From: Candidatus Ozemobacteraceae bacterium
Lineage (GTDB): Bacteria > Muiribacteriota > Ozemobacteria > Ozemobacterales > Ozemobacteraceae
Direction: 5' to 3'
Length of the DNA stretch: 64,000 bases
Assembly: GCA_035373905.1 (NCBI GenBank)
Contig: DAOSOK010000004.1
Location: 33,271 to 97,270, forward strand
Below are positions 27,135 through 62,205 of the stretch, piece after piece (position 1 is the stretch's first letter; the number at the start of each line of letters is the position of its first letter). Under the pieces are notes generated by a model. The model made no database searches. It was given only the letters and a program-made list of their open reading frames with translations, and was not told the DNA's origin. Position numbers and translations under genes: made by a program.

Positions 27135-27167
27135 CATTTCATTCATCACGTCCCCGGAGGTTTTTCC

Positions 27168-29144: not shown

Positions 29145-29175
29145 TGGACCCGTGCGGCGAAAAGGGCAAAATGGC

Positions 29176-30799: not shown

Positions 30800-30825
30800 C
30801 GGGCGAAGTCGCGGGAGGAAAATAT

Positions 30826-32139: not shown

Positions 32140-33497
32140 TGCGGTTCGTCCCCTTTCCCGCTTGGCGCAGGGCTTTCCTGGCGGCGCTCTGCGCGGCTTC
32201 GGTGTGCGCCGGGGGCGCATGCGCCCAGGAAGAGGATGACGTCCGCGAGTTCCTGACCAAGGGGCAGGTTTGCTACCAGAAACGCGACCTGGCGGGTGCC
32301 GCGCTCGAGTTCGAGAACGTGCTCCTCCTCGATCCGGCGAATTTCGAGGCGTCGATCTGGCTGGCCCAGATCTATGCCGACCAGAAGAACATGTTCAAGG
32401 CCCGGCAGATGCTCCAGCAGGCGAAACGGATCATGCCGACGCACGCCCGCGTGATCGCGCTCGAGAAACTGTTCGGTGCCGACAAGCCTCGGGTCTCGAA
32501 AAAGGAAACCGACCTGGTGATGCACGAGGCGCTGACCCTGCTCGGTTCGGGAACGAACCTGCGGCCATACGGCCTCGTCGTGCCCGAGCGGAAGGTCCGG
32601 GCCGCCGGCGTCCAGTCCTCGACGATGGCCGCGTTCGAGGACGTGGAAATTGCGATCGAACCCTCGCTCGGAACGGCCCCGGCGAACGCTCCTGCCGGTA
32701 TCGACGCGTTCGCGAAGGAGGAGGGACCGCTCGCCCCCGTGTTCGAGGCGCGGACGGTCGAGGGACTGGCGAAGGCGCTCGACGTCTATTTTGAGATCGT
32801 CGGGAAGGACAAAACCCTCGTCGAACAGGATGACAAGGGCTTGCTCACCGAGGGAATCGCGTTCTACGAGCCGAAACTCCGCGCGAATGCCAGCGACACC
32901 GAGGCCGTTTTCTATTACGGCATGATCCAGTTCTACAACGGGGCGGTCGAAGAAGCGTTCAAACTCCTCGAGCCCCTGCGTGACAACGAGACGCCCTACG
33001 GCGACCGGCTCCAGGTCGTCTGGAATGAGATCGACAAACGGAGACGCGAGGAGGAAGCCCGCCGCGAAGCCCTCAGGCGCGAGGAGGAGGCCCGCGAAGC
33101 CGCCCGCATCGCCGCCGCCGAACAGGCCGCCGCCGCGTCCGCCGCGATCGCCGCCGCCGCAGGAAGCGCTCCCGCCGGAACCGTCGCCTCCGCCTCGAAC
33201 CCTGCTGACGCCCTTCACGCCGAAGGCTACGAACTGTACAAGAAGGGCCAGGTCGATGCCGCGATCGAGAGGTTCAATACCGCCATCAGCCGCAACCCGA
33301 ACGAACCGAATTACCACTACCACCTCGGCCTCGCCCTCACGGACAAGGGACTCGGGGGGCAATACGACGCATTTGACCGGGCGATCGAGTCGTTCAACCG
33401 CGTTCTGCGCCTCGCCCCGCCCGGCGAAAAACTCGCGAAAGACGCCGAAGCCATGGTTCGCGACATCACCGCCGCCAAAAACACCCTCAAACGCTGA
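32139..33497 (+). CDS. secreted TPR-repeat protein with a central Glu/Arg/Ala-rich coiled-coil region
   Basis: Signal peptide; TPR-like motifs (GAALEFENVLLLDPANFEASIWLAQIY; ...LHAEGYELYKKGQVDAAIERFNTAISRNPNEPNYHYHLGLAL). Confidence 0.6.
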   Translation: MRFVPFPAWRRAFLAALCAASVCAGGACAQEEDDVREFLTKGQVCYQKRDLAGAALEFENVLLLDPANFEASIWLAQIYADQKNMFKARQMLQQAKRIMPTHARVIALEKLFGADKPRVSKKETDLVMHEALTLLGSGTNLRPYGLVVPERKVRAAGVQSSTMAAFEDVEIAIEPSLGTAPANAPAGIDAFAKEEGPLAPVFEARTVEGLAKALDVYFEIVGKDKTLVEQDDKGLLTEGIAFYEPKLRANASDTEAVFYYGMIQFYNGAVEEAFKLLEPLRDNETPYGDRLQVVWNEIDKRRREEEARREALRREEEAREAARIAAAEQAAAASAAIAAAAGSAPAGTVASASNPADALHAEGYELYKKGQVDAAIERFNTAISRNPNEPNYHYHLGLALTDKGLGGQYDAFDRAIESFNRVLRLAPPGEKLAKDAEAMVRDITAAKNTLKR

Positions 33498-44267: not shown

Positions 44268-45773
44268 TTACTTCGTGGTGGCGAGGTTGGCTTTCGCTTC
44301 TTCGATGACGTTCAGGTTGTCGATCGCCATTTCCTTCGTGCGGAGGGTCTCGGCCTTGCTTTTCCCGAAATTGAAGACCTGCTTGTTTGCTTCGTAGGCC
44401 TTGACCTTCTTTTCGTTGGTGCCTTCGTTCATCCAGGCGAGGTTGCACTTCGCATATTCGGACTTCACCTTCTCCATCTCGGCGCACTTCTTCTCGATCA
44501 TCGCCTCGATGGCGGCCTTGTCGGTGCCGGTTTTCTCGCTCAGGCGAAGTTCCTTCGCCATGTTGGTCCGAAGCTCGTCGGTCGTCGCCGGATACTGATC
44601 GATGAGCCGGGTGAACTGCTTCATTTTTTCGGGGTTTTTCTTGTCTTCCTCGCTCAGTTTCTCTATCGCCTTCTCGATCTGCCGGTCGGCCAGCTTCATC
44701 TCGTAGGCTTTCTTCTGGGCATCGGCCATCTCTTTCTGGGACGCGTCTTTCTCATTGTATATCGATGCGAATGATTTCCTGAAAAACTCCTTCTCGTCCT
44801 CCTGGATTTTTGCATCTACCTGCTTCAGAATCTTGTCCGCCTTGTCGGAGGGGCGCTCGCCTTTTTCGGGAAGATTGCCGTCGGGACATTTGATGTCCGC
44901 AAGCTTGTTTCTCATGTCGGTGGCGAACGCGACGTCCGGGTCGGTGCCGACGATCCAGTCATACCACTTCTTGCCCGTATCGATGTCCTCGATCTGCTTG
45001 TTGAGCTCCTTCAGATCGTCTTTTGCCTGGGTGATCGTGTCTTCCTGGACCTTGCTCATGTCGTCGAGCTGCTCTTTCGTCAGGTTCTTGAGAGAGTCGG
45101 CGGACAGCTCCTTGTCGAACCAGGTGCTCTTGTCTGCTTCGTCGATCTTCTCCTTGATCGCCGATGCCGTCTGGAGATTGCTCGCATAGCTTTTGTTCGC
45201 CAGCTGGTAATAATCGTCGCGCATGATCACTGACGTGCGCTCGGTATGCCGGATTTCCTTCTTCGAGCCGGGAACCCGCATCTTGAGGGTGACGGCGACG
45301 TCCACCCGCGCCGACTGCTGGGGATTGGCTTCGGCCTCTTCGGGGGAAAGAGTTTTCTTCGCGACGGTCACGACGTCGACGTGACCCGAGAGCGTGCGCG
45401 GCCCCTTCCCGCTCAACTCGCGCCTCAGAAGCGGCTTGAGGAATGTGTATTTCACGGCGAGGGTTTTGTCCGTCGAAAGCTTTTCCTCACCCTTCGATTT
45501 CTCGTCGACGGCGAACCGTTCAAACTCCATCGAGAGGGGATCGGCCGTCGTTTTGAAGGTGTTCGCCTTGACGGCCTTCAAGTCGGCCGTCAGCATCTGG
45601 ACGATCAGGCGGCTGTCGTGCTGGAGGATCTGACGCGTGCTCGTGATGGCCATGCTTCGCTGCGCCTGGCTCCAGAGATTCATCGTGACGCCGAGGACGA
45701 GCGCGAAGAGGGCGATGCTCACCATGACTTCCGTCATGGTGAATCCCCGTCTGCGTCCAGTTTTCATCGCCAT
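44268..45773 (-). CDS. prepilin-type N-terminal domain protein with an about-400-aa Lys/Glu-rich coiled-coil C-terminal region
   Basis: Start chosen at the ATG at 45773 (MAMKTGRRRG|FTMTEVMVSIALFALVLGV). The C-terminal two thirds are highly charged heptad-like sequence (KEKIDEADKSTWFDKELSADSLKNLTKEQLDDMSKVQED...). The track ORF extends 105 codons further upstream. Confidence 0.6.
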   Translation of the reverse strand: MAMKTGRRRGFTMTEVMVSIALFALVLGVTMNLWSQAQRSMAITSTRQILQHDSRLIVQMLTADLKAVKANTFKTTADPLSMEFERFAVDEKSKGEEKLSTDKTLAVKYTFLKPLLRRELSGKGPRTLSGHVDVVTVAKKTLSPEEAEANPQQSARVDVAVTLKMRVPGSKKEIRHTERTSVIMRDDYYQLANKSYASNLQTASAIKEKIDEADKSTWFDKELSADSLKNLTKEQLDDMSKVQEDTITQAKDDLKELNKQIEDIDTGKKWYDWIVGTDPDVAFATDMRNKLADIKCPDGNLPEKGERPSDKADKILKQVDAKIQEDEKEFFRKSFASIYNEKDASQKEMADAQKKAYEMKLADRQIEKAIEKLSEEDKKNPEKMKQFTRLIDQYPATTDELRTNMAKELRLSEKTGTDKAAIEAMIEKKCAEMEKVKSEYAKCNLAWMNEGTNEKKVKAYEANKQVFNFGKSKAETLRTKEMAIDNLNVIEEAKANLATTK

Positions 45774-45808
45774 ACCTCGATTCTTCGGCCGGAACGGTCG
45801 ATCCGGTT

Positions 45809-46306
45809 TCACAGGAACTTCGTTTCGGGATTGAACACCAGGGCCGTGGCTCTGAGTCTGCGTTCGGGCTGATTGACGGCGGTCTTTCCGCCCTTGTCGC
45901 GCCATCGGATCTCGGCCTCGAAGTAAATCTCGACGAGCTGGTTCGACTCGTTTTTCGTGCCCGTCATCGAGGTCTCCACCCAGAACTCCCGGTCGCCCGT
46001 CTTCTTCTGTTCGTCGAGCGCGGCGACCGTCTCGGGATAATACTTTTCGGGAATCGCGAACTTCTTTTCCTGCAGTACGTCGGGACATTCCTTCACATAC
46101 GTCGCAAAGGGAACGTGCTTGACCTCTTCGATCAGCCGATTGAGGATGGCGGCAGCCTGCGACTGATTGCTGGTTCGCGCCGTGGCGGTGTAGTTGCCGG
46201 TTATCAAACGCAGGAGCGGCAGGAGCGCGAGGGCGATGATGGCGACCGCGACCATGATCTCGATCATGGTGATGCCGCTCCGGCGCCGGTCACGACAAGC
46301 CGTCAT
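45809..46306 (-). CDS. prepilin-type N-terminal cleavage/methylation domain protein (pseudopilin-like)
   Basis: Start at the ATG at 46306: MTACRDRRRSG|ITMIEIMVAVAIIALALLPLL, with Glu at +5. Confidence 0.65.
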   Translation of the reverse strand: MTACRDRRRSGITMIEIMVAVAIIALALLPLLRLITGNYTATARTSNQSQAAAILNRLIEEVKHVPFATYVKECPDVLQEKKFAIPEKYYPETVAALDEQKKTGDREFWVETSMTGTKNESNQLVEIYFEAEIRWRDKGGKTAVNQPERRLRATALVFNPETKFL

Positions 46307-46307
46307 G

Positions 46308-49187
46308 TCAGTCCACCTTCCAGGTCGACCATTTCGGCGACAGAACGAGGTGATACCGGCGCGGGTCGAACTTGCCGGTTTTCGGATGGAGGCTGCCGAG
46401 AGAGGCACGGACGCGCGAGGCGATGTAGTCGATCATCACGTGGCCTTGCATGCGCATCTTGTCGACGCGGTTCGTCACCCAGTTCCCCTGGATGTTCAGC
46501 GACGTGCTCGGGGAGACGTAGAGGCCGACGTTGGTGTACAGGGAGCCTTCGAACGTCAGATTTCCGGGCTTGGTGGCGATCAGGCCGCCGTTGCGCACGA
46601 TCAGGCTGAACACCGTTCGCTTGTCGGGGTTTTCTGCTGCGGCCGCGTCGTCGATGCACGCGACGTTGCAGCCGAGATAGGCGTTGCCGGAGCAGACGAT
46701 CATGCCCTTCCCGACGACGTTGAAGGTGTCTCCCTCGGCCGGGGCGAAGGGCTTTTCATCCGAGCCGAGCGAGCCTGCGATGAAGTTGACGCCGTTCAGC
46801 ATGAACGCCTTGCCCTTGGGGGTGTCGACCATGCGGTTGGGCAGGTCCTTCAGGAACGCTTCGTAGGTGGGGTAATAGTAGGTTGCCTTCTTCGCGAACT
46901 GCTCGATCGCGTAGAAATTGGCGGGACAGTTGATCATCTTGGCCGGGTCATACGCCGTCAGAGCCGTGTCGGCGGCGTTCGTCTCGACGTCGAACGGCTT
47001 GAGGAACCACAAATTATAGTCATATTTATTGATGACTTCGTCGCAGAACCATACAGGGATCGGAACCGGCGGGACGAAACACCACGGCGGCGGGAACGGC
47101 AGCAGCGGGAGCCGGTCGGCCTGCGACAGGCCGATGATCGTGACATGCCACTGGCGGTAGCGCTTCGCCACCATGCCTTCGATGTCGCGGGACAGCGTCG
47201 GATACTGGCTGTTCGTGCCGAAGAAGTGGGTCTTGTTCTGGCCCCATCCCAGTGTCGGAAGGGTATAGATGCTGTTGCGCGTGCCCATCCAGGGGAGCTC
47301 GAAATCGATGAACGCATCGTCCTCCATCATGGGGTCGCCGAACGAGATCGTGGCGTTCGGGAGGGACTTGCCGAGCCCCCGGAGGGCGAGGGATATGCCA
47401 AAATGAATGATGGTGCTGCTGACCTTTGATATGTCGGGAATGAAGTTGATCCCGTCCGGCTTGTCTTTGTCGGGAGATTCCGCCGGCGGTTCGGGGGCCC
47501 ACCATTTGCCTGCGTTCACCCGCTTGATGCTGGAACGCCATTTTTCGCGGTTCTCCTTGTATACCGGATCCTTGTTGAGGAATTTCGCTTTCCCGGAGAT
47601 ATCCGATGAAAAGGCGAAGCCGCGGTTCAGCTTCTCGAATTTCAGGCTCTTGATGCTCGGAATACCGTATTTTTCGGCGTCGAGCTTTTTCGATTTCGTG
47701 TAGAAGGTCAAATCGACGTTATAGTCCGCCTTGGACACGACCATGTCCTTGTCCCGGCCGAGCATCATCAGGCCGTCGATGCCGCCGGAGAGATTCAAAA
47801 AGGTGTTCCCGACCGCGTTCTGGGCGAACTGCGGCCCCTTCCAGTCGCCCATCATGGAGCAGTTGACCAGCAGGGGCGTGCCGGGCTCCTCGTCGCTCTT
47901 GTAATCGTCGGGCATGTAGTTGATGCGGATCTGGCCGCCGACTTCCTTGTTCTTCTCGCGGGTTTCCTTGTCCTGGATCCGGCCGCCGCTGTTGTTGACG
48001 TAGAAGCTGCCGCCGTAGTCGTTGAAATTCATCTTGTCGTTGCTGAGGTTCGCCGCGAAGAAGCTGTACAAGGGCGCCATCGGCTGGATATCGGATACTT
48101 TGAATTCCTTCGTCGCCTCGATGCGGCGTTCCGAGAAGGTGCCGTCCTTGAAATTGATGCGAGCGACCGACAGCAGCTTGATTTCGCCGTATTTCTCGAC
48201 GTGATACTCGAACCCGGTCGGGATCTCGCCTATTCCAGCGGGCCAGAGATCCGCGATCTTGGGAAAGAAGTTCTCGTCATACAGCCACTTGAAGGGGTAG
48301 ATGTTCGGCTTGCCGAACGCCTGGGCGATCATGCGCGCGATCACGTCGAGCGTGAAATAATCATTGACGCCGAGGCCGTCGGGGCGGTTGCAGTTCGACG
48401 CGAACTCGCTGCCCTTGGTGAGGGGCTTGACCGCGAGGTCGATCACCGGCGTCGGGTCGATCGTCGCGAGCGTGATCTCCTTGTTGATCAGGGGGATCCA
48501 CACCTTGATGGGAATGGCGAAGTTGAACAGCTTCAGCCAGTCAGGAAAATACAGCAGGAATGCCATTCTGCCCTTGTTTTCGAGGAAGTCGAGGATGTCC
48601 TGACGCGTCGAAAACTCGATATCTATACCAGGAACTTTATATTCTCCCTCGGCGGGCTTCTTCGGGGCGATGCGGAACGCTTTGTCGATCTCGACGGTGA
48701 CCGTGACCTCGAAGTCCTTCGCCCTGCCGTCGCCCATGTAGTCGACGAGCTTGTCCATCGTGTCTTCTCCCTGCGGCTTGAGGCGCAGGTCGGCGGTCTT
48801 GAGCTCGATCTTGTTCTTGAACGGCGTGTTGTCGAACCCCTTCACATCGAGTAGTTCGTCGGTTCCGAGGTCTCCGCCGAAGGTGTAGGGATTGTTCGCG
48901 GCGGCCTTGAGCGGGTAGCGCAGCAGGATCGCGAAGTTCTGGATCTTCGCGTCGGACTTGAACATGTCGGGATTGTTCATCGACTTGCTGAGCATGTGGA
49001 CGGCGCGGTTGAGCCCGGCCTCCGCGAGACAGGCTGCCTGGTCTCCCGTGACGGAGCGGCGCGTCTGCCTGCCCCGTTCGACGGTCGAGTTCGCCAGATG
49101 CATCGACACGAGGAAAATCAGCGACAGGAAGACGATGACGACGGAAAGGATATTCCCTTGCCGAGCGAATGCTTGCCTGTTTCGCAT
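46308..49187 (-). CDS. very large (~960 aa) N-terminally membrane-anchored secreted protein, encoded in a pseudopilin cluster
   Basis: Start at the ATG at 49187 (MRNRQAFARQGNILSVVIVFLSLIFLVSM). No enzymatic motifs recognised; Trp/Tyr/Asn-rich. Position and N-terminus resemble GspK/PilX-type large minor-pilin-like proteins. Confidence 0.45.
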   Translation of the reverse strand: MRNRQAFARQGNILSVVIVFLSLIFLVSMHLANSTVERGRQTRRSVTGDQAACLAEAGLNRAVHMLSKSMNNPDMFKSDAKIQNFAILLRYPLKAAANNPYTFGGDLGTDELLDVKGFDNTPFKNKIELKTADLRLKPQGEDTMDKLVDYMGDGRAKDFEVTVTVEIDKAFRIAPKKPAEGEYKVPGIDIEFSTRQDILDFLENKGRMAFLLYFPDWLKLFNFAIPIKVWIPLINKEITLATIDPTPVIDLAVKPLTKGSEFASNCNRPDGLGVNDYFTLDVIARMIAQAFGKPNIYPFKWLYDENFFPKIADLWPAGIGEIPTGFEYHVEKYGEIKLLSVARINFKDGTFSERRIEATKEFKVSDIQPMAPLYSFFAANLSNDKMNFNDYGGSFYVNNSGGRIQDKETREKNKEVGGQIRINYMPDDYKSDEEPGTPLLVNCSMMGDWKGPQFAQNAVGNTFLNLSGGIDGLMMLGRDKDMVVSKADYNVDLTFYTKSKKLDAEKYGIPSIKSLKFEKLNRGFAFSSDISGKAKFLNKDPVYKENREKWRSSIKRVNAGKWWAPEPPAESPDKDKPDGINFIPDISKVSSTIIHFGISLALRGLGKSLPNATISFGDPMMEDDAFIDFELPWMGTRNSIYTLPTLGWGQNKTHFFGTNSQYPTLSRDIEGMVAKRYRQWHVTIIGLSQADRLPLLPFPPPWCFVPPVPIPVWFCDEVINKYDYNLWFLKPFDVETNAADTALTAYDPAKMINCPANFYAIEQFAKKATYYYPTYEAFLKDLPNRMVDTPKGKAFMLNGVNFIAGSLGSDEKPFAPAEGDTFNVVGKGMIVCSGNAYLGCNVACIDDAAAAENPDKRTVFSLIVRNGGLIATKPGNLTFEGSLYTNVGLYVSPSTSLNIQGNWVTNRVDKMRMQGHVMIDYIASRVRASLGSLHPKTGKFDPRRYHLVLSPKWSTWKVD

Positions 49188-49228
49188 ATGCGTTTCTCCC
49201 TGTTTCGCCTTGGAGCGTGATGTCGCCA

Positions 49229-50044
49229 TCAGCCGCCCGGATTTTTCGGATAGATGGATTCGCTGTCCGGAAGGTCGGTCGGGTGGAGCTTGCGGGCCTC
49301 TTCGATCGCCTTCATGAATGTCGTCACGTCGACGTTTGTTCCCATTGCGAGATTGCCTTTGACCAGTTCCTCGCGCAGGCGGCCCGGGTCGACCTTCGCG
49401 AGCTGGGCGAACATCTCCGACGCCCTGGCGATATTGTCGGCCACCGGCCCGTAGACGTGCTTGAGCTTCTGCGCCGCGAGGGCGTAGTTTTTGAACGCCT
49501 TCACGAACTCGTCGATATTGCCGGCGCGCTTGTAAACCTCCATCAGACCGCCGTAGGCCTCGACTTCGAGAAACGCATTGTCACGCGCCTGGGAAACGGC
49601 ATTCTTGTAGAATACCTCGGCCGCCTTGAGATCGCCTCGGTCGAGGCAGGCGTTGCCTTCGATCATGTCGGGGTTGTCGGCGACCTCCGACATGCTGACG
49701 CCTTCAGGGGACATGCCCTGCGGATACGCTTGACTGCGCGGGGCGGACTGGATTTTTTCCCAGGCCTTGTCGAGTTCTTTTTCGACATGGCTCTGCCCGC
49801 TTTCGATCTGGGCCATGACCCCTCCGCCACCGGCCGACGAGCCGCCGCCCGAGCCCGAAGGCCGGGTTTGCAGGATGTCGAAGGCCGATGCGCGACTCTC
49901 GAGCGTGTGCGACGAGAACGACTGCTCTTCCGTCGATTTCTCGATGGTGACGAGGATATACACCACCGGAATGAGCAGAAGGAGACAACCGGCGAGAAAC
50001 CAGCGGATGTCGCTCAAATCGATTCTGTCGTAATACCTGCTCAT
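49229..50044 (-). CDS. membrane-anchored helical (TPR-like) protein
   Basis: N-terminal TM (IRWFLAGCLLLLIPVVYILVTI), a Gly/Ser-rich linker, and helical TPR-like repeats (GDLKAAEVFYKNAVSQARDNAFLEVEAYGGLMEVYKRAGNIDEFVKAFKNY). First gene of the minus-strand operon. Confidence 0.45.
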   Translation of the reverse strand: MSRYYDRIDLSDIRWFLAGCLLLLIPVVYILVTIEKSTEEQSFSSHTLESRASAFDILQTRPSGSGGGSSAGGGGVMAQIESGQSHVEKELDKAWEKIQSAPRSQAYPQGMSPEGVSMSEVADNPDMIEGNACLDRGDLKAAEVFYKNAVSQARDNAFLEVEAYGGLMEVYKRAGNIDEFVKAFKNYALAAQKLKHVYGPVADNIARASEMFAQLAKVDPGRLREELVKGNLAMGTNVDVTTFMKAIEEARKLHPTDLPDSESIYPKNPGG

Positions 50045-50139: not shown

Positions 50140-51321
50140 GTGAAGTCGCATCGGAGAGTAAACGGAACACCCCACGCCCGGTGGGCGGCAATCGCGCTGC
50201 TCATCGGTATTTTGGCATGCGGTACATCCCTCTTCGGGCTTCCTGTGCCGATGCAACTGGCGCCCCCCTGCTCGCTCGAACGAACCGAGCGGAACGTCAC
50301 CACCCCGTTCGGACCCTGGCGCGAACGGTCGGAACAACGAATTACCTACGGCCATTTCACGCCGTATCTCTCGAGCGAATTCCAGTTCCGGCACGCGATC
50401 TTCAAGCATGAGTGGGGCACCAGGACAGGCCGCGACTTCCTCACGCAGGCGTCGTTTTCCGGCAGAAACATGAACTCCCCCATGAGCTTCAAGGTGGGGC
50501 GCATCTGGAGCGGTAACGCCCTGTTCCGGCCGGTCGACGGCGGCTCCTGGACGTATCCGTGGGGCAGGCGGCTGAGTACGACCCTCGAAGCCGGCCGGCT
50601 CGCGACGCACGATCTCAAGGACGACACGAACAAGCCGGGATATTTCGAAGGCCGCCTCAACTACCGGTTCAACGAGCAGACGACGTTCGCGATCCTCTCG
50701 GAACAGGAATGGCACGACCGGTATAGCGCCGCGCAGCTGGGATACGTGATCGACGCGCTCCGGCTGATCGGGGAATACCGCTCGAGCGGAGCGACCGACA
50801 CGTGGCGCATGGGCATGCAGTATTACGACGGGAAGTGCGTCGATCTGACCGCCGATTACCGGCTCAACTACAACGATGCCACCAACTCGGGGGTCGGCCG
50901 TGCGACCGCCGGGTTCGAATCGGGCCAGATGTATTTCGAAAGCTCGGTTGGAGGTCGATTCTTCTTCGAGAAGGAGAAAATTCCGGACAGCACGTTTTAC
51001 GAGGGGAACGTCACCTGGGGAAACACGCGACTCGGCGAAAGCACCGCGGGGCTTGGTTACACGGTCGAGTCGGGGGTGGCTTCGGTGAGCCGCACGATTT
51101 CCGGCACGGTCGAGCGCGTCGTCACGAAACGCACCCGGATCGGCCTGACGCTCGCCGAAACCCGTTTCGATCAGGGCAAAACGAACGTGCAGAACATGGA
51201 AAGCCGGCTCCATCGGCGCGTCGACTGGGGATTTTACGAACTCAGGTTCGCGCTGATTTCCGGCGGCGCTGACTCGGATCTCGAAAAGGACATCGCTCTC
51301 AGAGCCGGCTACGAATTCTGA
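50140..51321 (+). CDS. putative outer-membrane beta-barrel protein
   Basis: GTG start and signal peptide; alternating Tyr/Gly-rich amphipathic strands; C-terminus ...LRAGYEF ends in aromatic-x-Phe, as is typical for OMP targeting. Confidence 0.5.
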   Translation: MKSHRRVNGTPHARWAAIALLIGILACGTSLFGLPVPMQLAPPCSLERTERNVTTPFGPWRERSEQRITYGHFTPYLSSEFQFRHAIFKHEWGTRTGRDFLTQASFSGRNMNSPMSFKVGRIWSGNALFRPVDGGSWTYPWGRRLSTTLEAGRLATHDLKDDTNKPGYFEGRLNYRFNEQTTFAILSEQEWHDRYSAAQLGYVIDALRLIGEYRSSGATDTWRMGMQYYDGKCVDLTADYRLNYNDATNSGVGRATAGFESGQMYFESSVGGRFFFEKEKIPDSTFYEGNVTWGNTRLGESTAGLGYTVESGVASVSRTISGTVERVVTKRTRIGLTLAETRFDQGKTNVQNMESRLHRRVDWGFYELRFALISGGADSDLEKDIALRAGYEF

Positions 51322-51635: not shown

Positions 51636-54600
51636 TTGCTTTTCGAGAAGATCCTGAGGATTGAACAACTGCCGTTCGATGCCGGCCGCATTGCCGTTTC
51701 CTGCGATGTCGGCGAGGGCCGTTGGGTCGACATGACCTACGGGGAGCTCGTCGAGATCGTGGGCGAGGTGGGCCGCATTCTCGGCGAGAGCGGCGTCAGA
51801 AAGGGCGAGCGCATTCTCCTCGTCGGCGAGAATCACTACAAGTGGCTGCCGGTGTTCCTCGGCATCACGGGATACGGCGCCGTCGCCGTGCCGGTCGACG
51901 GGATGCTCGCGGACAAGCGCCTGCTCGGCATCATCGAGAACTGCAACCCCCGGGTCATCATCACGTCGAAAAAGTTCCAGGACAAGACGGCCGCCCTGGT
52001 CGATCAGCTCGGTGCAACATGTGGTGTCGTCAATTTCCACTTCGACCTGGTGCGGGTTCATGGCGAAAAGGAAACGGCACGCCTCGCTCCGGCGACGATC
52101 GAGCCTGAAGACACCGCCGCGATCATCTACACGTCGGGAACAACCGGCCGTCCGAAGGGAACGATCCTGAGCCATCGTGCTCTCGTCGCGGCCGCAGCGA
52201 TGGGTCTGTCTCTCGGAAATTATCGGCAGACCGACGTGATGCTGGCTCTTCTTCCGTTCACGCACGTGTACGGCCTCGTGAACACCGGCCTCTGCCCGCT
52301 GATGGTCGGGTCGAAGATCGTCATGACGGCTTCCTACAATCCGATCGAGATCCTGCAGGCGATCGTGCGGTTCCGCGTCAGTTTCCTGCTCGTCGTTCCG
52401 CGTCTCGCTGAAATCTTCGTGATGGCGCTCCGGCAGATGGCCCAGCCCATGCCGATCCCGAGCATGACGATGATCATCGGCGGCGCCTCGGTCGCGCCGA
52501 AGGTCATCGAAGCGCTCCGGGCGTGCGGCGTCAGGGCGTTCCAGGGCTACGGCATGACCGAGACGTCGGGCGGCATCGTCGCGTCGATGGATGGTCCGGT
52601 CAGTTCCGTCGGAAGGGCGCCCGAGGGCGTCGAGTTCAAGCTCGAGAATGCGAAGAACGGCGTCGGCGAGCTGCTGGTTTCCTCGCCGACCCTGTGCAGC
52701 GGCATCTTCGGCAGCGCCGAGGACACGAACGCGCTGTTTTCGGGAGCGTTTCTGCGGACCGGCGACCTGTGTGAGATAGATAGCGATGGCTATATATACG
52801 TGCGCGGCAGGGAAAAGGACGTCATCATCCCGCCCGGCGGCGTGAACGTCTACCCCGACGAACTCGAAATGCGGCTCGGGGCGCTGCCCTTCGCCGAGGA
52901 ATACGCCGCGCTGGGCTTTTCCGAAAACGGAAGCGAGTATCCGGCGCTGGTCGTCAAGCCGTCGAAGGCGATCCTGCAGACGAAACCGCCGGCTGAAGCC
53001 GCCGCCTTCATCGAAGAGGAGATCCGACGCATCACCGCCGACTGGCCGGAATGGGAGCGGTTCCGCAGGATTCACGTCGTTTCCGCGCCGCTGCCCCGCT
53101 CCGCGAGCCAGAAGGTGCAGCGGAACCGGCTTCTCGAAACCCTGGGGGGCGGCGCGGCTCCTGCCGCAGCGGAGCAGCCTCGGAAGAAGGCGCCCGTTTC
53201 GTGCGGCGTCGAAGCTGACCGGCAGTTCGAGATTTTCCGGAAAATCACGGGTCGGTTTCTCAACGTCGCACCCGAGGCCATCACACGCGGGAAGCGGTTT
53301 GCGGAGTTCCTGCAGCTCGATTCGCTCGGCATGGTGGCGCTCGTTTCGCAACTCTGCGAAGAGTTCCGGATCCCGATGCGCGAGCTCCAGATCGAGACGG
53401 TGCAGGATTTCGGCGGACTGTTCGACCTGCTGATCGCCGGCGGCGGCGTCGCGGCCGGAGAAGCGGTGTTCGACGAGGCCGAGCTCGAAGGACGTCTGCC
53501 GCCGCTTCTCGATTACAGCCCCGACGCCGTGAAGGCGCGCCAGCGGTTCCTGCAGAAGCGCACGGGGGCGAACGTGAAGTGCATTCCGCGCCCCGAGGAC
53601 GCGCGCTTCCTGAGCGGTAACGTCGAGGGCTTCATCGGCTTCGGCGAGATTCCGCTGGGGCTGATCGGCCCCCTCAAAGTGGCGGGCGATCACGCCCGCG
53701 GCGATTTCTACATCCCGCTGGCGACGACCGAGGGCGCGCTCGTCTCGTCCGTCGCGCGCGGGGCGCAGGTCATCACCCTCTCGGGCGGCGCGCGCGTCAA
53801 GGTCATCGCCGACAGCCTCGTCCGGGCGCCGATCTTCGTCTTCGAGACGCTGTTCGACATGATGTCCTTCAACCAGTGGATCGAGAACCATTACGACGAT
53901 CTGAAGGCCGCGGCCGAGTCGACCACGCGGCACGGCCGGCTGGAAGCGATCGAGCCGTTCCCGATGGGGTCGACCCTCTGCCTTCGGTTCGTGTATTCGA
54001 CGGGCGACGCGTCGGGCCAGAACATGACCACGATCGCGACCCACGCGGCCATCAAATGGATCGCCGCCCATTACCGGGGGCCGATGACCGACTGGTTCCT
54101 CGAGTCGAATCTGTCGGGCGACAAGAAGATCAACGGCGTCAACTTCACGCGCAATCGCGGGAAGCGCGTGATCGCCGAGGCCGAGATTCCCCTGGCGATC
54201 GTCGAGAAGCATCTCCATACCTCGGCCGATCGCATGGTGCGGCTGGGCCAGCTCTCGATGATGACCTCGCTGCACGCCCACGCGTTCGGCTCCCAGGCGC
54301 ACTACGCGAACATCCTGGCCGCTATGTTCATCGCGGCCGGCCAGGACCCCGCCTGCGTGGCCGAGTCGGCGACAGGCGTCACGAGCCTCGAACTGCGCCG
54401 CGACCGGCTTGCCGTCTCGGTCACGCTGCCGGGCCTGATGGTCGGCACCGTCGGCGGCGGCACGCGGCTTCCGACCCAGCAGGCCTGCCTGCAGATCCTC
54501 GAATGCGACGGCCCGCGCCGCGCGCGCAAGCTCGCCGAGATCGTGGCGGCCGCGGTGCTGGCCGGCGAGATCTCGCTGATCGCGGCGATGGCCGCCGACG

Positions 54601-54650
54601 AGTTCGCCGGCGCCCATGCCCGGTACGGGCGGAGCGGCGGCCATGGCTGA
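51636..54650 (+). CDS. tri-domain fusion protein: acyl-AMP ligase (adenylation) domain + phosphopantetheine carrier (ACP/PCP) domain + class-I HMG-CoA-reductase-like reductase domain
   Basis: TTG start with an AGGAGG RBS. A domain: IIYTSGTTGRPKG, GYGMTETSG, TGDL..D.DGY..RGR.KD. Carrier domain: FLQLDSLGMVAL (Ser attachment motif). C-terminal 370 aa align motif-by-motif with the HMGR catalytic domain: EGFIGFGEIPLGLIGPL~ENVIGYMPIPVGVAGPL, LATTEGALVSS~MATTEGCLVAS, TGDASGQNM~SGDAMGMNM, GDKKING~TDKKPAA, AGQDPA~CGQDAA, GTVGGGTRLPTQQACLQIL~GTVGGGTNLLPQQACLQML. Catalytic Glu/Lys/Asp and the C-terminal His are present. Confidence 0.8.
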   Translation: MLFEKILRIEQLPFDAGRIAVSCDVGEGRWVDMTYGELVEIVGEVGRILGESGVRKGERILLVGENHYKWLPVFLGITGYGAVAVPVDGMLADKRLLGIIENCNPRVIITSKKFQDKTAALVDQLGATCGVVNFHFDLVRVHGEKETARLAPATIEPEDTAAIIYTSGTTGRPKGTILSHRALVAAAAMGLSLGNYRQTDVMLALLPFTHVYGLVNTGLCPLMVGSKIVMTASYNPIEILQAIVRFRVSFLLVVPRLAEIFVMALRQMAQPMPIPSMTMIIGGASVAPKVIEALRACGVRAFQGYGMTETSGGIVASMDGPVSSVGRAPEGVEFKLENAKNGVGELLVSSPTLCSGIFGSAEDTNALFSGAFLRTGDLCEIDSDGYIYVRGREKDVIIPPGGVNVYPDELEMRLGALPFAEEYAALGFSENGSEYPALVVKPSKAILQTKPPAEAAAFIEEEIRRITADWPEWERFRRIHVVSAPLPRSASQKVQRNRLLETLGGGAAPAAAEQPRKKAPVSCGVEADRQFEIFRKITGRFLNVAPEAITRGKRFAEFLQLDSLGMVALVSQLCEEFRIPMRELQIETVQDFGGLFDLLIAGGGVAAGEAVFDEAELEGRLPPLLDYSPDAVKARQRFLQKRTGANVKCIPRPEDARFLSGNVEGFIGFGEIPLGLIGPLKVAGDHARGDFYIPLATTEGALVSSVARGAQVITLSGGARVKVIADSLVRAPIFVFETLFDMMSFNQWIENHYDDLKAAAESTTRHGRLEAIEPFPMGSTLCLRFVYSTGDASGQNMTTIATHAAIKWIAAHYRGPMTDWFLESNLSGDKKINGVNFTRNRGKRVIAEAEIPLAIVEKHLHTSADRMVRLGQLSMMTSLHAHAFGSQAHYANILAAMFIAAGQDPACVAESATGVTSLELRRDRLAVSVTLPGLMVGTVGGGTRLPTQQACLQILECDGPRRARKLAEIVAAAVLAGEISLIAAMAADEFAGAHARYGRSGGHG

Positions 54651-57417: not shown

Positions 57418-57615
57418 CAAAAGAAGACTTCGTCGCGGGAACGCCGAGATATCTTTTCTTGATTCTGTCTCGTCTTTGGGTTGTCTCTGCGTTTCTGCGC
57501 CTCCGCGGATGAATCACTGCGGCGCAGGCGTGATACATTCCCGGTATCGCCGTGGTATCATGAGGGGGGACCGGCTCTTCTTCTGCCGGTCCCTCGCAAA
57601 TTTGACGGAGATTCG

Positions 57616-59724
57616 ATGCCAGAACCGATGACCGGCCCCACGTGGAATACGCAGCGACCGGCGGCCCTCGCCGCGCGTCGCGGCTTTCTCCTGCCGGCCA
57701 TCGTTCTCATCGCGCTCGTACTAGCCCTGATGTTCGGCGCCCTCAGCTACATGACGAGAGGCCAGGTGCATAGTGCCGCATATTTTATCGACGCCAGTCG
57801 GGCGCTCGGGCTTGCCGAAGCGGGGGCGGGGTGGGCGATCGCCGCCCTTGCCAGCGGATCGTACACCGAGTCGCCGCCGTTCGTCCGTCGCGCTTTCTAC
57901 GACGCCATGTTCAGCGATGGCGGAACCGACTACGAGGGCGACGTCGAGCCGTGCGACGAGTTGAAGCAGTATATCAACAAACTGGGCGGCGATCTGTCGC
58001 TTCGGGTGCGGCTTTCCCGGTGGCAGCCGCTCGTCGCGGGAGCGCCGGGCTTCAAGAACGATCCGGTCGAGAAGATGGGCCGCATCGACGTGGAGGCCGT
58101 CGCCGAGGTGGGAAACGCCCGCCGGAAGGTCCGCATGAGCCGCGGGGTCAAGGTGTATCTCGCGGTGCATCCGGTGATCGGGAAGTTCACCTGCTTCATC
58201 CGGAAGAAGCCCGCTTCCGACGATCTGGTGAACGCCCTCGAACGCACGACGAACGGCGCCGGCTTCACGAACGGCACCCCGCTGGTGCTGAACAATCGCG
58301 GCGCCGGCAACGGATTCAACGTGGTGACTCCGGCTCTCGACCTTGGTGCTCTTCCGGACCTCAACGAACTGTCCAAATCATCCGGGTGGGTGTTCCTCAA
58401 TTCCGACACCGCTCCTTGGACGCTGAACCTCGCAGGTTCCGCCAATGACACCGATTACGACGACCGGTCGATGCTCCGGTTCGGGGCCTACAGCAACGAT
58501 GCTCTGCTGACGGCGGTCAACACCCCCCCGCAGGCCGGCGGGACGACGGTGACGCAGGTCAACGAGAAGTTCCAGGGCCTGAAACGCGATTACACGATCA
58601 GCAAGGGCGGCTCCGTCGTCGTCGCATCCGACTTCCTGAGCGTTCGGCATCTGTTCCCGTCCCTGCCCAAGGCCAGCATCATCCGGCCGTTCGGTACGAA
58701 CGGCGACCTGTCGCCGACCCTGCTGTTCGGGCCCGTTCTCAGGCGGTATCTTCGGGTGCGGTCGGTGGATTGCAAGATCAACATTTCCGGAGTGGACAAG
58801 ACGTTCAAGGAAGTCGGCGTTCCCGGTTTCCCCGACGAGTCGAGCTTCAAGCAGGCCTTCCTTCACCCCCCGACCTCGCCGCGGGACTACGCCGACGATT
58901 TTGTTCTATACGCACAATTATGGAACATGATCGCCGACGCGCCGGGTCTCGCCGCCGGCTGGAACAAGTGGCGGAGTTCCCAGACGACGCTGGTGTCGGA
59001 GCCGTTCATCGAGGGGCTGAACTATCTGGCTGTCGCCGAACGGGAAACCGGGACGGTGCAAAACCCCGTGTCGAAGGCATACACCGACCCGCCACCCGAC
59101 GTCGTCACCGGCCTCGACCTCTGGGCGGGAGGGTCGGAAGGGCTTCGAAAGGCGGAAGGCATCTTCGGCGCTTCCGGAAAACCCCTGTTCGAAGGGGGGC
59201 TGGGCGAGATCGAGGGGATACGGGAATTCGGACCGAAGATCACCGCCATGTATGCCGCGCCGAAGGCGTATCTCGACAGGCATCTCGACCAGTCCGGCAA
59301 CATTGCGGTGGCCGGGGTCGTGTATCTCGGGCCTGAAGACCTGCTCATCGACAGGAAGTGGAACGTGACGGCAGGCGGCGTGCTCGTCGTCGGCGGAAAC
59401 ATCGACATTCGGGCCGGCATCCGGTCCGCAGAGCCCCTGACGCTGGTCAGCACTGAAAATATAACGATAGATACATCCGAGCCGGTCGAAGCGCAGTTGA
59501 TCTGCCTGCGCGGAAAATTCACGCCCCGTAACGCCTTCACGATCAGAGGCGGCGTCGCGGCGGGAGAGATCGATCTGACCAATATGGTCAACTCTCAGAA
59601 GAAGCAGATCAACTGGGACTCCAGGTTCGATCCGTACGCCGTTTCCTCGGCCATGTCGGTCGGCTCCCCCTATCGGTACAGGGTGTCCGAAGAGGAGGAA
59701 TATGTCGTCGAACCCGGCAAGTAA
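57616..59724 (+). CDS. large (~700 aa) N-terminally membrane-anchored hypothetical protein opening the third pseudopilin cluster
   Basis: ATG at 57616 (MPEPMTG...RRGFLLPAIVLIALVLALMFGALSYM). No catalytic motifs. The C-terminal part is Gly/Val-rich and beta-helix-like (VAGVVYLGPEDLLIDRKWNVTAGGVLVVGGNIDIRAGIRS). Confidence 0.45.
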   Translation: MPEPMTGPTWNTQRPAALAARRGFLLPAIVLIALVLALMFGALSYMTRGQVHSAAYFIDASRALGLAEAGAGWAIAALASGSYTESPPFVRRAFYDAMFSDGGTDYEGDVEPCDELKQYINKLGGDLSLRVRLSRWQPLVAGAPGFKNDPVEKMGRIDVEAVAEVGNARRKVRMSRGVKVYLAVHPVIGKFTCFIRKKPASDDLVNALERTTNGAGFTNGTPLVLNNRGAGNGFNVVTPALDLGALPDLNELSKSSGWVFLNSDTAPWTLNLAGSANDTDYDDRSMLRFGAYSNDALLTAVNTPPQAGGTTVTQVNEKFQGLKRDYTISKGGSVVVASDFLSVRHLFPSLPKASIIRPFGTNGDLSPTLLFGPVLRRYLRVRSVDCKINISGVDKTFKEVGVPGFPDESSFKQAFLHPPTSPRDYADDFVLYAQLWNMIADAPGLAAGWNKWRSSQTTLVSEPFIEGLNYLAVAERETGTVQNPVSKAYTDPPPDVVTGLDLWAGGSEGLRKAEGIFGASGKPLFEGGLGEIEGIREFGPKITAMYAAPKAYLDRHLDQSGNIAVAGVVYLGPEDLLIDRKWNVTAGGVLVVGGNIDIRAGIRSAEPLTLVSTENITIDTSEPVEAQLICLRGKFTPRNAFTIRGGVAAGEIDLTNMVNSQKKQINWDSRFDPYAVSSAMSVGSPYRYRVSEEEEYVVEPGK

Positions 59725-60139
59725 CCGCATTCCAGACATCCGCACGCCGATCCCGAAGGGGGGGCGTGGTTTCACGATGATCGAACTCGTGGTCGTGGTG
59801 CTGGTTCTGACGTTGGTCGCCGGGGCGTATTTCTACGTCTGGCGCCAGCAGGGGCGTCTCTCGGCGAGCGACCAGGATGTCGCCGCGTATTACATGGCGG
59901 CGGCATCGTTCATGGACGTGTTCTACAGCGACACCAGAATGGCCCGCAGGATCGAGCCGACAACGGACGGCTGCATCATGGAAGTCATGACGTCCGGCGG
60001 CCTCCAGCAGGTGACGTACACCCTGCGAGACAACGGCATCGAGCGACTCATGAGCGGCAAGACGAAAGTGTACACGTTCGGGAAGCCGTTGCGCGAAAAT
60101 GCGAAGGTGCTCTTCCGTGTCCGGGAATTGGCTCCCTGA
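59702..60139 (+). CDS. prepilin-type N-terminal cleavage/methylation domain protein (pseudopilin-like)
   Basis: ...KGGRG|FTMIELVVVVLVLTLVAG; overlaps the upstream gene end. Confidence 0.65.
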   Translation: MSSNPASNRIPDIRTPIPKGGRGFTMIELVVVVLVLTLVAGAYFYVWRQQGRLSASDQDVAAYYMAAASFMDVFYSDTRMARRIEPTTDGCIMEVMTSGGLQQVTYTLRDNGIERLMSGKTKVYTFGKPLRENAKVLFRVRELAP

Positions 60140-60193
60140 CCGTGCGTGAAAGCGAGATTGGCCCGTGAACCATCCAACAAGGAGGTCGTTGCC

Positions 60194-60952
60194 GTGAATC
60201 GGTCTTTCGACAATGTCGTGTTCCGAGGCGCGTGTGCCCTTGCCCTGGCGTTCTGGCTGGCTGGCGCCGCGCTGGCGGTCGCCGCAGAGCCGAAGCCGCG
60301 GTATGGCGTCACCTTCGGACAGGAAGGGAACGAAGTCGAGATGCAGGTCGTTCCCGCCCGCCTGGGGGTCGCCTCGAACGCGATGCCGGCCCCGGCCGAC
60401 CCGTCGGTGCAGGGCATCGTCGCTGCCCCTTCGAAACGGCCGACGGCGCCCCTTTCCACGAGCGCTCCGGCAACTCCCGTCGAATTGAAATCCGAGTCGG
60501 TTGCGGACTACAAGGAGGACGGATTCGACGTCAGCGTCGATGATGTGGCGGGCGAGGCCGTCGCGAATGACCTGGACGCCTCCGGCAAACTTTCACTCGC
60601 GATCCTGTTCAACAACGATTCCCATGAGGTCGACCTGTCGGATGCGAAGACGATGAAAACCCTCAACAGCATCCTGAAGATGATGAAATGCCGGGCGACC
60701 CTCAAGATTCTCATCGAGGGATATGTCGATTATACGGGCACCATGGAATGGCATGCGCTGGGCAAGGCGCCCGACTTTGGCCAGGCCACATCGGAAGCCC
60801 GTGCCTATGCCGTGAAAAAATGGCTTGTCGACAACGGAATCTCCTCGCTCAGAATATCCTGCGTCGGAAAAGGGATGCGAGGCGCAGAGGGCGATTCCGA
60901 GGCGCAGCAGAAGCTGAACCGGCGCGTCGATATCGTGAAACTGTCCGAATGA
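60194..60952 (+). CDS. OmpA-family peptidoglycan-binding-domain protein (copy 1 of a tandem pair)
   Basis: GTG at 60194 with a perfect AAGGAGG RBS and signal peptide. C-terminal OmpA-like domain (IEGYVDYTG...ARAYAVKKWLVDNGIS...NRRVDIVKL). Confidence 0.7.
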   Translation: MNRSFDNVVFRGACALALAFWLAGAALAVAAEPKPRYGVTFGQEGNEVEMQVVPARLGVASNAMPAPADPSVQGIVAAPSKRPTAPLSTSAPATPVELKSESVADYKEDGFDVSVDDVAGEAVANDLDASGKLSLAILFNNDSHEVDLSDAKTMKTLNSILKMMKCRATLKILIEGYVDYTGTMEWHALGKAPDFGQATSEARAYAVKKWLVDNGISSLRISCVGKGMRGAEGDSEAQQKLNRRVDIVKLSE

Positions 60953-61007
60953 GTCCTCAGGCGCGGAACGGCGGATCCGTCGCCGGGTGGCATACGGGAG
61001 GGAAAGG

Positions 61008-61721
61008 ATGCGGAAGATGGCTGATGACGTGTGGTGCCGGACGGCGTTCGTCTCGCTCGGCACGGCCGTGTTCATGATCGTTGCCGCCTCTGCCGGCGCC
61101 CAGCCCCACCGATATGGGGTTGTGTTCGGCCAGCAGGGAAACGAGGTCGAGATGCAGGTGGTGCCGGCCCGCTCCGGGATCGCCACGAGCCCCATGCCGT
61201 ATCCGGGGGACACTGCCGTGACGGCGATCGTCGGCGCCCCCGTGAAACGACCGACCGGCGCCCTCCCTCCGAAACCCGCTGAAATGCCGGTTCCCCTCAA
61301 ATCCCAGTCGGTGTCGGAATACAAGGAGGACGGGTTCGACGTCAGCATCGACGGGGTCTCCGGAGAAGCGTTCGCGCAGAAGCTCGACGCGGCGGGAAAG
61401 GTGTCCGTCGACATCCTGTTCGATTTCGATCAGGCGACGATCAAGGCCGAATCCGTTCCGGCGCTCAACGCGATTCGCTGCATGCTGAAAAACAACCCGG
61501 AGCAGAGAATCCGGGTTGAAGGGTATACGGACTACCGGGGTCCGGTCGATTACAATTTCGAACTGTCCGTGCAGCGGGCGTATGCCGTCAAGCGGTGGCT
61601 CGTCGAGCGAGGCATCGAATCGACCCGGATCGATTACGTGGGAAAGGGACAGCGCGGCGAGGCCGGCGACTCCGAGGCCCAGCAGGCCCTGAACAGACGC
61701 GTCGACATCGTTAAACTGTAG
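61008..61721 (+). CDS. OmpA-family peptidoglycan-binding-domain protein (copy 2, paralog of 60194-60952)
   Basis: RBS GGGAGGGAAAGG. The N-terminal mature region is about 55-60% identical to copy 1 (RYGV.FGQ.GNEVEMQVVPAR.G.A...P.P.D). OmpA-like C-terminus (VEGYTDYRGPVDYNFELSVQRAYAVKRWLVERGIES...NRRVDIVKL). Confidence 0.7.
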   Translation: MRKMADDVWCRTAFVSLGTAVFMIVAASAGAQPHRYGVVFGQQGNEVEMQVVPARSGIATSPMPYPGDTAVTAIVGAPVKRPTGALPPKPAEMPVPLKSQSVSEYKEDGFDVSIDGVSGEAFAQKLDAAGKVSVDILFDFDQATIKAESVPALNAIRCMLKNNPEQRIRVEGYTDYRGPVDYNFELSVQRAYAVKRWLVERGIESTRIDYVGKGQRGEAGDSEAQQALNRRVDIVKL

Positions 61722-61722
61722 T

Positions 61723-62205
61723 GTGTATAACGTGAAATATATAATATTCGAAGACAGCTATTGCCGAAGGGGACGAAACGGCCGGGGCATCCGCGGCCGC
61801 GGCTTCACGCTCGTGGAGCTCGTCGTCGCGATGATCGTGCTGGCGGTGCTGCTGCTGCCCCTCGTCAGGCACTTCGTCAGCACGCGACGCGTCTCGATCG
61901 CGGCGCGCGACGCCGTCGTGGCGAACTCGCAGCTCCTCTCCTGCCTCGCCGACTTCCAGGCGATGAGGTTCGATGAGATTGCGAACGCCACGAACGCGAC
62001 GTTCACGAGGGTGTTCCAGCGCTGGGACGGCGACCGGACGGTCGGCAGCGTGACGTATCACATGTCGGTCAACGTGAGCGCCGGGGCCGACCCGCGTTAC
62101 AGGCTCATCGACGTCGAGACGCAGTTTCGCATGCCCGGGGCTCCCGCCAATGCGCCGAAACGCAAGATGAGCATCAAGGGGTTCGCCTATGCGCCGCCGA
62201 ACTGA
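61723..62205 (+). CDS. prepilin-type N-terminal cleavage/methylation domain protein (pseudopilin-like)
   Basis: ...RGRG|FTLVELVVAMIVLAVLLLPL; GTG start, exact start uncertain. Confidence 0.6.
   Translation: MYNVKYIIFEDSYCRRGRNGRGIRGRGFTLVELVVAMIVLAVLLLPLVRHFVSTRRVSIAARDAVVANSQLLSCLADFQAMRFDEIANATNATFTRVFQRWDGDRTVGSVTYHMSVNVSAGADPRYRLIDVETQFRMPGAPANAPKRKMSIKGFAYAPPN

Follow-up and report, generated by a model that had tools for sequence, protein, structure and literature searches.

The stretch of DNA analysed here, in the following called the window, comprises 64,000 nucleotides of contig DAOSOK010000004.1 from a Candidatus Ozemobacteraceae bacterium and raises the question of which function a prepilin-type protein with a large charged tail may have when it is encoded together with a second pilin-like protein and a protein of 959 amino acids. 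The genes in question form a cassette on the minus strand (44268-50044), which is filled by four co-directional open reading frames with products of 271, 959, 165 and 499 amino acids, hereafter referred to as the TPR-like protein, the giant, the small pseudopilin and the long pilin. An earlier note, which had been made from the sequence alone, described these genes as an operon of pilin-like proteins running from 50044 to 44268, and the arrangement found agrees with this description. The product of the cassette is probably the tip (initiation) complex of a type IV filament, which may be a pilus or a pseudopilus resembling that of type II secretion systems; the machinery of such a filament would be encoded elsewhere. 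The best reading is a complex of the K-I-J type in which two subunits are bulky and carry effector parts.

The pilin module of the long pilin

The long pilin is encoded at 44268-45767 on the minus strand (499 amino acids); from an alternative in-frame ATG at 45773, the product would have 501 amino acids. The ATG at 45767 has a GAGG sequence 7-8 nucleotides upstream and yields a protein beginning with MKTG, and the homologs also begin with MKT. Due to the better Shine-Dalgarno spacing and the MKT start of the homologs, the ATG at 45767 is the likelier start. The N-terminus reads MKTGRRRG followed by FTMTEVMVSIALFALV, and the first eight residues (45744-45767, minus strand) constitute the predicted class III leader peptide with a predicted cut after Gly8. 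The protein scores above the curated cut-offs of PF07963 (27.0 vs. 21.2) and TIGR02532 (23.9 vs. 16.3), which confirms the bona fide prepilin N-terminus proposed earlier. Among 46 diverse relatives, position -1 is occupied by Gly in 32 and by Ala in 14 proteins, and Glu is found at position +5 in all 46. A start downstream of the prepilin motif had been named in the earlier note as a finding that would speak against a class III signal; both candidate starts lie upstream of the motif. Judged from these features, the long pilin is a type IV pilin-like protein with a genuine class III signal, whose motif predicts cleavage.

An AlphaFold2 (AF2) model of the long pilin was built from 20 sequences and has a mean predicted local distance difference test score (pLDDT) of 74.5. 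It contains a long alpha-1 helix (residues 13-66) and a beta-sheet domain (residues 74-185), so that the pilin module comprises residues 1-185; its mature part is encoded at 45213-45743 (minus strand). In the model, the N-terminal alpha-1 helix is packed on an antiparallel beta-sheet, as is typical of the pilin fold, and the globular domain of the module is structurally similar to GspJ. At the sequence level, the cut-off of the GspJ model TIGR01711 (64.85 bits) is not reached, the long pilin scoring 18.9 bits over its N-terminal 70 residues only. The same model matches 22 of the 46 relatives, every one of them below the cut-off (best E-value 2.4e-7). A Foldseek search of the PDB with the long pilin gave no match at E<=0.001, and PDB profile searches with alignments of the long pilin, the giant and the small pseudopilin returned noise only.

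The C-terminal helical module

The pilin module is followed by a flexible linker and an all-alpha C-terminal module of about 310 amino acids, both assigned from the AF2 model (44268-45212, minus strand, stop codon included). The linker (residues 194-221) has a pLDDT below 50, and the region of residues 225-499 is made of the helices 233-262, 279-292, 308-334, 347-371, 398-408, 416-442 and 451-499, which are predicted with a pLDDT of 75-90. These seven helices have lengths of 30, 14, 27, 25, 11, 27 and 49 residues and are separated by partly conserved loops, which contain Pro or Gly. The tail is rich in Lys (16%), Glu (12%) and Asp (10%), has 39% charged residues in total and carries a net charge of about -7. 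Core-type hydrophobic residues make up 24% of the tail; they occupy conserved positions, and their 3-4-7 spacing is local, inside each helix. The conserved motifs DTGKKW, CPDxxLPxKxxxRPSD, KAYEMKLxDRQIEKA, CxLxWM and KAYEAxKQ were recognized, the first two of which are located in loops. According to the model, the tail is a folded bundle of amphipathic helices of approximately 310-315 residues. Two other architectures were ruled out: a single-alpha-helix (ER/K) spacer by the proportion of core-type hydrophobics at conserved positions, and a continuous long coiled coil by the interruptions of the heptad register, which does not run through hundreds of residues. The earlier note had described a Lys/Glu-rich, heptad-like extension of about 400 amino acids that would form a coiled-coil fibrous appendage. 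The charged character of the tail is borne out; however, the extension is only about 315 residues long, with residues 1-185 belonging to the pilin module, the heptad spacing does not extend beyond the separate helices, and model and sequence point to a multi-helix domain on a flexible linker rather than a fibre.

Is this tail real? It might be an artefact of low-complexity or antisense sequence, or the gene might actually start downstream of the prepilin motif. Open reading frames of 144-208 amino acids on the opposite strand indeed overlap the gene, in contrast to the earlier statement that no competing frame exists, and the G+C content of the region (0.56) is lower than that of its neighbours. 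However, these opposite-strand frames are without any support, and 19 full-length homologs of 501-534 amino acids, sharing 33-91% identity, are present in Candidatus Ozemobacter and metagenome-assembled genomes (MAGs) of Riflebacteria, with conservation extending further by profile search. In comparisons with four orthologs, the ratio of non-synonymous to synonymous substitution rates (dN/dS) is 0.08-0.12 for the tail and 0.08-0.20 for the N-terminal domain, which indicates purifying selection on both parts. Moreover, the called frame has a G+C content of 0.81 at third codon positions (GC3), the N-terminal motif does not vary among the 46 relatives, and the conserved tail motifs are non-repetitive. 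Because of the full-length homologs and the low dN/dS, the tail is truly coding; an antisense artefact and drifting low-complexity sequence can both be dismissed. The artefact explanation is thereby refuted, and in this respect the earlier note was correct.

Pfam searches with 11 tails revealed no family common to more than one member. A tail-only profile matched 51 of 1.84 billion representative proteins. In matches of 470-553 amino acids, the tail starts at around residue 180-260, behind an N-terminus of pilin size, and shorter matches look like fragments. A prepilin motif is present in all 11 tail-bearing proteins that were read. The homolog search, which had been suggested earlier for the combined pilin and tail architecture, therefore found the tail only joined to a pilin module. 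The long pilin is thus built like the modular pilins described in PMC8179133, with a pilin module up to around residue 185, a linker and a separate helical module in the AF2 model, which are kept as a unit. Modular pilins are widespread and carry effector modules that are displayed at the filament tip (PMC8179133); hence, a long pilin as such does not lie outside known biology, although the earlier note had set it apart from normal pilins of 120-170 amino acids. By analogy to other modular pilins, the default guess is that the helical module may bind a surface, a polymer or a partner protein.

The tail contains two cysteines, Cys294 and Cys441 (Cys296 and Cys443 in the numbering of the 501-amino-acid form). 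Both are present in 11 of the 46 relatives, the second alone in four and neither in 31, and the first is never found alone; Cys294 is located in a loop that is absent from 30 of the 46 relatives. A disulfide between the two residues is possible and would fit an extracytoplasmic location, which is suggestive only.

The partner proteins of the long pilin

The small pseudopilin (45809-46306, minus strand; 165 amino acids) carries the signal MTACRDRRRSG followed by ITMIE and reaches 28.1 bits with PF07963 (cut-off 21.2), in agreement with the pseudopilin gene that had been noted in the cluster. Gly at -1 and Glu5 are present in the small pseudopilin of all loci read except one masked and one truncated locus. 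The best and most consistent NCBIfam models for the family are those of PilV (TIGR02523, 10 of 12 members) and GspI (TIGR01707, 8 of 12 members). For the small pseudopilin of the window, both models remain below their cut-offs (TIGR01707, 29.9 vs. 44.35 bits; TIGR02523, 32.3 vs. 52.2 bits) and cover the N-terminal 60 or so residues only; we refer to the protein as GspI/PilV-like.

The giant (46308-49187, minus strand; 959 amino acids) occupies the K-like position of the cassette. Its N-terminus, ...ARQG followed by NILSVVIVFLSLIFLV, contains Gly at -1, lacks Glu at +5 and continues with a conserved QAxxLAEAG sequence. In the family, the motif R-x-G, after which the sequence continues as N-[IV]-[LMF]-[AS]-x-V and a hydrophobic stretch, is found, and Glu at +5 is present in none of the 28 loci read. 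Gly at -1 without Glu5 is the signature of GspK/PilX-type subunits. The N-terminal region of the giant matches minor pilins. The extreme C-terminus, ...RRYHLVLSPKWSTWKVD, follows the family pattern ...SLHPxxGK[FY]DPRRYxLxLSPxWxxWKVD over the last 30 or so residues. Almost all relatives retain this motif, although it is relaxed in those of greatest divergence, and WKVD itself forms the end of most of the proteins. Both terminal motifs are conserved at each locus where the respective gene end could be read.

Profile searches gave a different picture. The full-length giant has no match in Pfam or NCBIfam at E<=1, including T2SSK, PilX_N and NF037980, and no match was obtained for any of 24 members of the giant family. 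The N-terminal 105-130 or so residues of three members, searched together with the K-like N-terminus of a 747-amino-acid protein encoded elsewhere in the window, also matched no Pfam or NCBIfam model at E<=10. Altogether, 25 homologs of the giant were identified, of which 23 are full-length, with identities of 50-93% and a Pfam domain in none of them; a second, profile-based homolog search added no new relatives. The GspK/PilX-like N-terminal anchor, which had been proposed for the giant, agrees with the pattern of Gly at -1 and the missing Glu5; membership of GspK/PilX itself is not supported, as no Pfam or NCBIfam profile recognizes the giant. The AF2 model of the giant, which had been suggested as a check, is poor overall (pLDDT 48), but the segments 1-175, 330-365 and 765-905 are confident. 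The last of these contains a predicted beta-helix (around residues 770-905); the large middle part is unrecognized, and residues 927-959 have a pLDDT below 50.

The first gene of the cassette (49229-50044, minus strand) encodes the 271-amino-acid TPR-like protein, in which a single hydrophobic segment near the N-terminus (WFLAGCLLLLIPVVYILVTI) is followed by a linker rich in Ser and Gly and by a C-terminal part of helical, TPR-like repeats. Pfam TPR_19 and TPR_14 match at E-values of about 0.002, which is below the gathering scores. For the TPR membrane protein described earlier, the TPR assignment is thus sub-threshold.

All four genes have a GC3 of 0.74-0.84, which is typical for coding sequence in this genome with a G+C content of 62%. 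The ATG of the giant (49187) has a GGGAG sequence 8 nucleotides upstream and is located 41 nucleotides after the TPR-like gene; an overlap with the stop codon of the TPR-like gene would result only from the longer, unsupported start at ATG 49229. The giant had been thought to start one base after the preceding gene; however, this spacing belongs to the small pseudopilin, whose ATG (46306) begins one base past the stop codon of the giant. A promoter and terminator scan detected sites that were no commoner than in shuffled sequence, and Rfam and tRNA scans of the whole window were empty.

Conservation and distribution of the cassette

The distribution of the cassette was analysed by searching one genome per GTDB species with the alignment of the giant, which was found in 27 genomes. 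Sixteen of these carry a label beyond "uncultured bacterium": 13 are assigned to Riflebacteria, Ozemobacteraceae or Rifleibacterium, two are oddly named MAGs and one is an unclassified bacterium. The distribution of the cassette thus points to Riflebacteria in each recovered genome with an informative label. In tblastn searches, the order TPR-like gene, giant, small pseudopilin, long pilin was recovered in 19 of 19 GTDB loci with enough DNA and in the metagenome contig L001. Immediately before the giant, the TPR-like protein is encoded in 21 of the 27 GTDB loci as well as in the loci L001 and L002, with identities of 30-91%. Synteny is confined to the cassette, as nothing is common to the flanking genes of the window, Candidatus O. 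sibiricus and L001.

Divergent members keep the giant and the long pilin at 22-36% identity (giants 30-36%), and in three of four such loci the small pseudopilin gene lies between them. The first gene is more variable. In the loci L005 (1252-4062) and L006 (1980-4409), a HEAT-repeat protein of 809-936 amino acids replaces the TPR-like protein, which gives a weak tblastn match to the HEAT protein of L006 (22% identity) and none in L005. The loci L007 and L008 have an uncharacterised gene for a 264-amino-acid protein without a match at this position. No published description of the cassette was found in literature searches.

Two loci show further peculiarities. In L004 (GCA_015233155.1; regions 1933-2133 and 10001-11449), a divergent homolog of the long pilin stands alone, and a remnant of the small pseudopilin of 40 residues is located 8 kb upstream of it, with DUF4372 and AAA_14/DUF4143 genes next to the remnant; in this genome, the cassette seems to have been broken up. 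Just downstream of the long-pilin homolog, a MshEN-domain protein of 266 amino acids is encoded. In L007 (8222-15984), the cassette is followed by a gene for a 727-amino-acid unknown protein and then by genes for CheA, an MCP and CheW, a set reminiscent of the chemosensory systems to which some type IV pili are linked; it was found at this one locus only.

A proposed filament-tip complex

The tip-complex reading is based on the observation that a set of one J-like and one I-like pilin with a large subunit that lacks Glu5, co-transcribed and co-inherited, matches the composition of known tip complexes. The earlier note had left open whether the long pilin is a filament subunit or a tip protein. 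Due to its GspJ-like module, its GspI/PilV-like neighbour and the GspK-style N-terminus without Glu5 of the giant, a tip protein is the better description. If the long pilin were instead a major or abundant subunit of the filament body, the whole fibre would be coated with helical appendages. The bona fide class III signal with Glu5 would suit such a subunit, and the flexible linker between module and tail could in principle permit a body position (PMC8179133). However, the pilin module resembles minor pseudopilins of the GspJ type and not major pilins, no major-pilin model matches, the gene is co-transcribed with those of I-like and K-like partners and is not a highly expressed solo pilin gene, and packing would be difficult with a module of 310 amino acids on each subunit; that the long pilin belongs to the filament body is therefore very unlikely.

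In the proposed tip complex, the three pilin-like proteins would enter the inner membrane via their N-terminal hydrophobic helices, and a prepilin peptidase would cleave the small pseudopilin and the long pilin after the Gly of their motifs. The small GspI/PilV-like subunit would then pair with the GspJ/PilW-like module of the long pilin, and the I-J pair would dock the giant at the very top, in the position of GspK/PilX. The topmost position is assigned to the giant because it is the only one of the three subunits without Glu5, as is the topmost subunit of known tip complexes. The conserved C-terminal segment of the giant probably folds back and completes its own N-terminal pilin-like sheet, similar to GspK and CpaL. 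The resulting trimer is proposed to prime the polymerisation of major pilins beneath it and to remain at the filament tip, where it would present two effector parts, the beta-helix-containing body of the giant and the helical module on the flexible linker of the J subunit. The membrane-anchored TPR-like protein, replaced by the HEAT-repeat protein in the two divergent relatives, may act as an accessory factor, perhaps as a chaperone or docking factor for the bulky subunits.

Several observations weigh against this model. No match of the giant to a GspK, PilX or Verru_Chthon-A profile was obtained and its structural model is poor; the gene order is K-I-J, whereas I-J-K is almost invariant in known systems (PMC13533445); the cassette contains neither a GspH/FimU-type subunit nor a major pilin; and in one relative, giant and long pilin are not separated by a small-pseudopilin gene. 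All structural statements are derived from one AF2 model per protein. In addition, genes for GspE/PilB, GspF/PilC, a secretin and a prepilin peptidase are absent from the window and from the surroundings of the cassette in the seven other loci whose genes were read, so that no filament system is linked to the cassette.

The missing machinery next to the cassette at every locus examined is also a point in favour of the serious alternative, according to which the prepilin-type N-termini serve only to anchor the proteins in the inner membrane, and the proteins form a complex of the periplasm or envelope without ever being built into a filament. The presence of three separate pseudopilin clusters in the window, which suggests a lineage-specific expansion, the weak sub-threshold matches to the Verru_Chthon cassette proteins B and C and the fact that the giant is recognized by none of the profile libraries tried are further in line with such a complex. 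However, Glu5 is invariant in both Glu5-bearing subunits and absent from the giant, which is expected for tip assembly and unnecessary for an anchor, and the J-like fold together with the I-like neighbour reproduces a known interacting set. An envelope complex is hence considered unlikely, although less so than a filament-body subunit, and the tip complex is preferred.

A more far-reaching version of the tip-complex model can be put forward only tentatively: the cassette might be a phylum-level invention of the Riflebacteria, a self-contained filament-tip organelle in which the effector domains of the K and J subunits, both without detectable relatives, act jointly as a new tip head. If true, a beta-helix body of approximately 750 amino acids and the 310-amino-acid module would form, e.g., an adhesin or a sensor specific to this uncultured phylum. 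The unusual K-I-J order and a dedicated TPR/HEAT chaperone would then belong to the organelle, and the helical module would represent a new fold or family that has a role of its own at a pilus tip, of a kind not seen before.

Comparison with known systems

The tip of the pseudopilus is made up of GspK, GspI and GspJ (PMC13533445), with E. coli (3CI0) and XcpX-XcpV-XcpW of P. aeruginosa as examples. It has been shown that the I-J pair recognizes K after a terminal beta-strand has completed the K sheet, and that this strand is provided in cis in GspK of type II secretion systems and in CpaL, a protein of around 600 amino acids (PMC13533445). Genes for these tips are arranged in the order I-J-K, in contrast to the cassette, whose operon also lacks GspH, GspG and the machinery. 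The K-like protein of the cassette is about three times as large as GspK and has no match to its profile, the J-like protein bears a helical module that is missing from GspJ, and all scores with sequence models are below the family cut-offs. By sequence models, no pilin-like protein of the cassette qualifies as GspK, GspI, GspJ or Verru_Chthon member.

Modular minor pilins provide a second comparison. In S. sanguinis, the I-like PilA presents two bulky modular pilins, PilB and PilC (PMC8179133, PMC9934059), and together with CofB of enterotoxigenic E. coli and ComZ of T. thermophilus these proteins carry vWA, lectin, beta-repeat or beta-solenoid modules. The module of the cassette, however, is all-alpha, no relative of it was found in Pfam or the PDB, and its host phylum, the Riflebacteria, is uncultured. 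The giant, in which a very large middle separates the pilin-like N-terminal part from a terminal peptide of extreme conservation, has the layout of C. crescentus CpaL/TadG (PMC13533445); PilC/PilY1 and MshQ complete the pilin sheet in trans. Neither CpaL nor PilY1 is similar to the giant in sequence, and a beta-propeller was not detected in the giant.

The Verru_Chthon cassette is likewise a lineage-specific set of several genes encoding one very large protein and prepilin-type proteins. Of its models (A, TIGR02600; B, TIGR02598; C, TIGR02599; D, TIGR02596), B and C give 19 and 15.8 bits against cut-offs of 51.4 and 256.5, and these weak matches are confined to the generic N-terminal helix. 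The giant does not match protein A, and the taxon is a different one. In summary, the cassette differs from known tips in its all-alpha module, the K-like protein of approximately 960 amino acids, the K-I-J order, the absence of an H-type subunit and the dedicated helical-repeat partner.

Neighbouring genes in the window

Two further pseudopilin clusters are located on the plus strand. The first (28527-33497) encodes a TPR protein of 205 amino acids, two prepilin-type proteins (motifs at around 29203 and in 29655-30308), an FG-GAP beta-propeller protein of 560 amino acids and a TPR protein of 452 amino acids. The third (57481-62743) encodes the above-mentioned 747-amino-acid protein, whose N-terminus is K-like (RRGFLLPAIVLIAL...LAEAG) and lacks Glu5 and whose C-terminus resembles a beta-helix, as well as three small prepilin-type proteins (59702-60139, 61723-62205 and 62189-62743) and, between the prepilin-type genes, two tandem paralogs (60146-60952 and 60987-61721). 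A BLASTP comparison of the giant with the 747-amino-acid protein yielded similarity of the N-terminal pattern only (E-value 2.3). With the cassette counted as the second cluster, the combination of a helical-repeat protein with pseudopilins and a large protein is thus present at three places in these 64 kb.

Only 95 bp from the cassette, a divergent gene on the plus strand (50140-51321) encodes a protein of 393 amino acids with a signal-peptide-like N-terminus and the C-terminal end ...GYEF. It has no Pfam match and looks like an outer-membrane beta-barrel; it was ruled out as a cassette member, as it is not a neighbour in other Riflebacteria genomes. Further downstream on this strand (51636-54650), a fusion protein of 1004 amino acids combines AMP-binding (E-value 1e-65), phosphopantetheine carrier (3e-5) and C-terminal HMG-CoA reductase (3e-111) Pfam domains. 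This unusual architecture suggests acid activation, carrier loading and a four-electron thioester reduction. Finally, an open reading frame of 1479 amino acids on the minus strand (24069-28508) overlaps a well-supported phosphoglucomutase gene with four PGM domains on the opposite strand (27168-28517), and its 24069-27098 part has no Pfam match; it is at least partly spurious.

Biological implications

The Riflebacteria are reported to surpass all other phyla in the density of unknown gene families per genome (PMC10849945). With the cassette, no new kind of system comes to light; a plausible role can, however, be assigned to four hypothetical genes, which keep their order in those genomes of these uncultured bacteria that were examined. 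For pilus biology, a J-type minor pilin with an all-alpha module is new, and the cassette departs from the I-J-K gene order, which is otherwise nearly invariant. The very large K-like subunit with its conserved C-terminus could furthermore be used to probe how general the model of terminal beta-strand licensing (PMC13533445) is.

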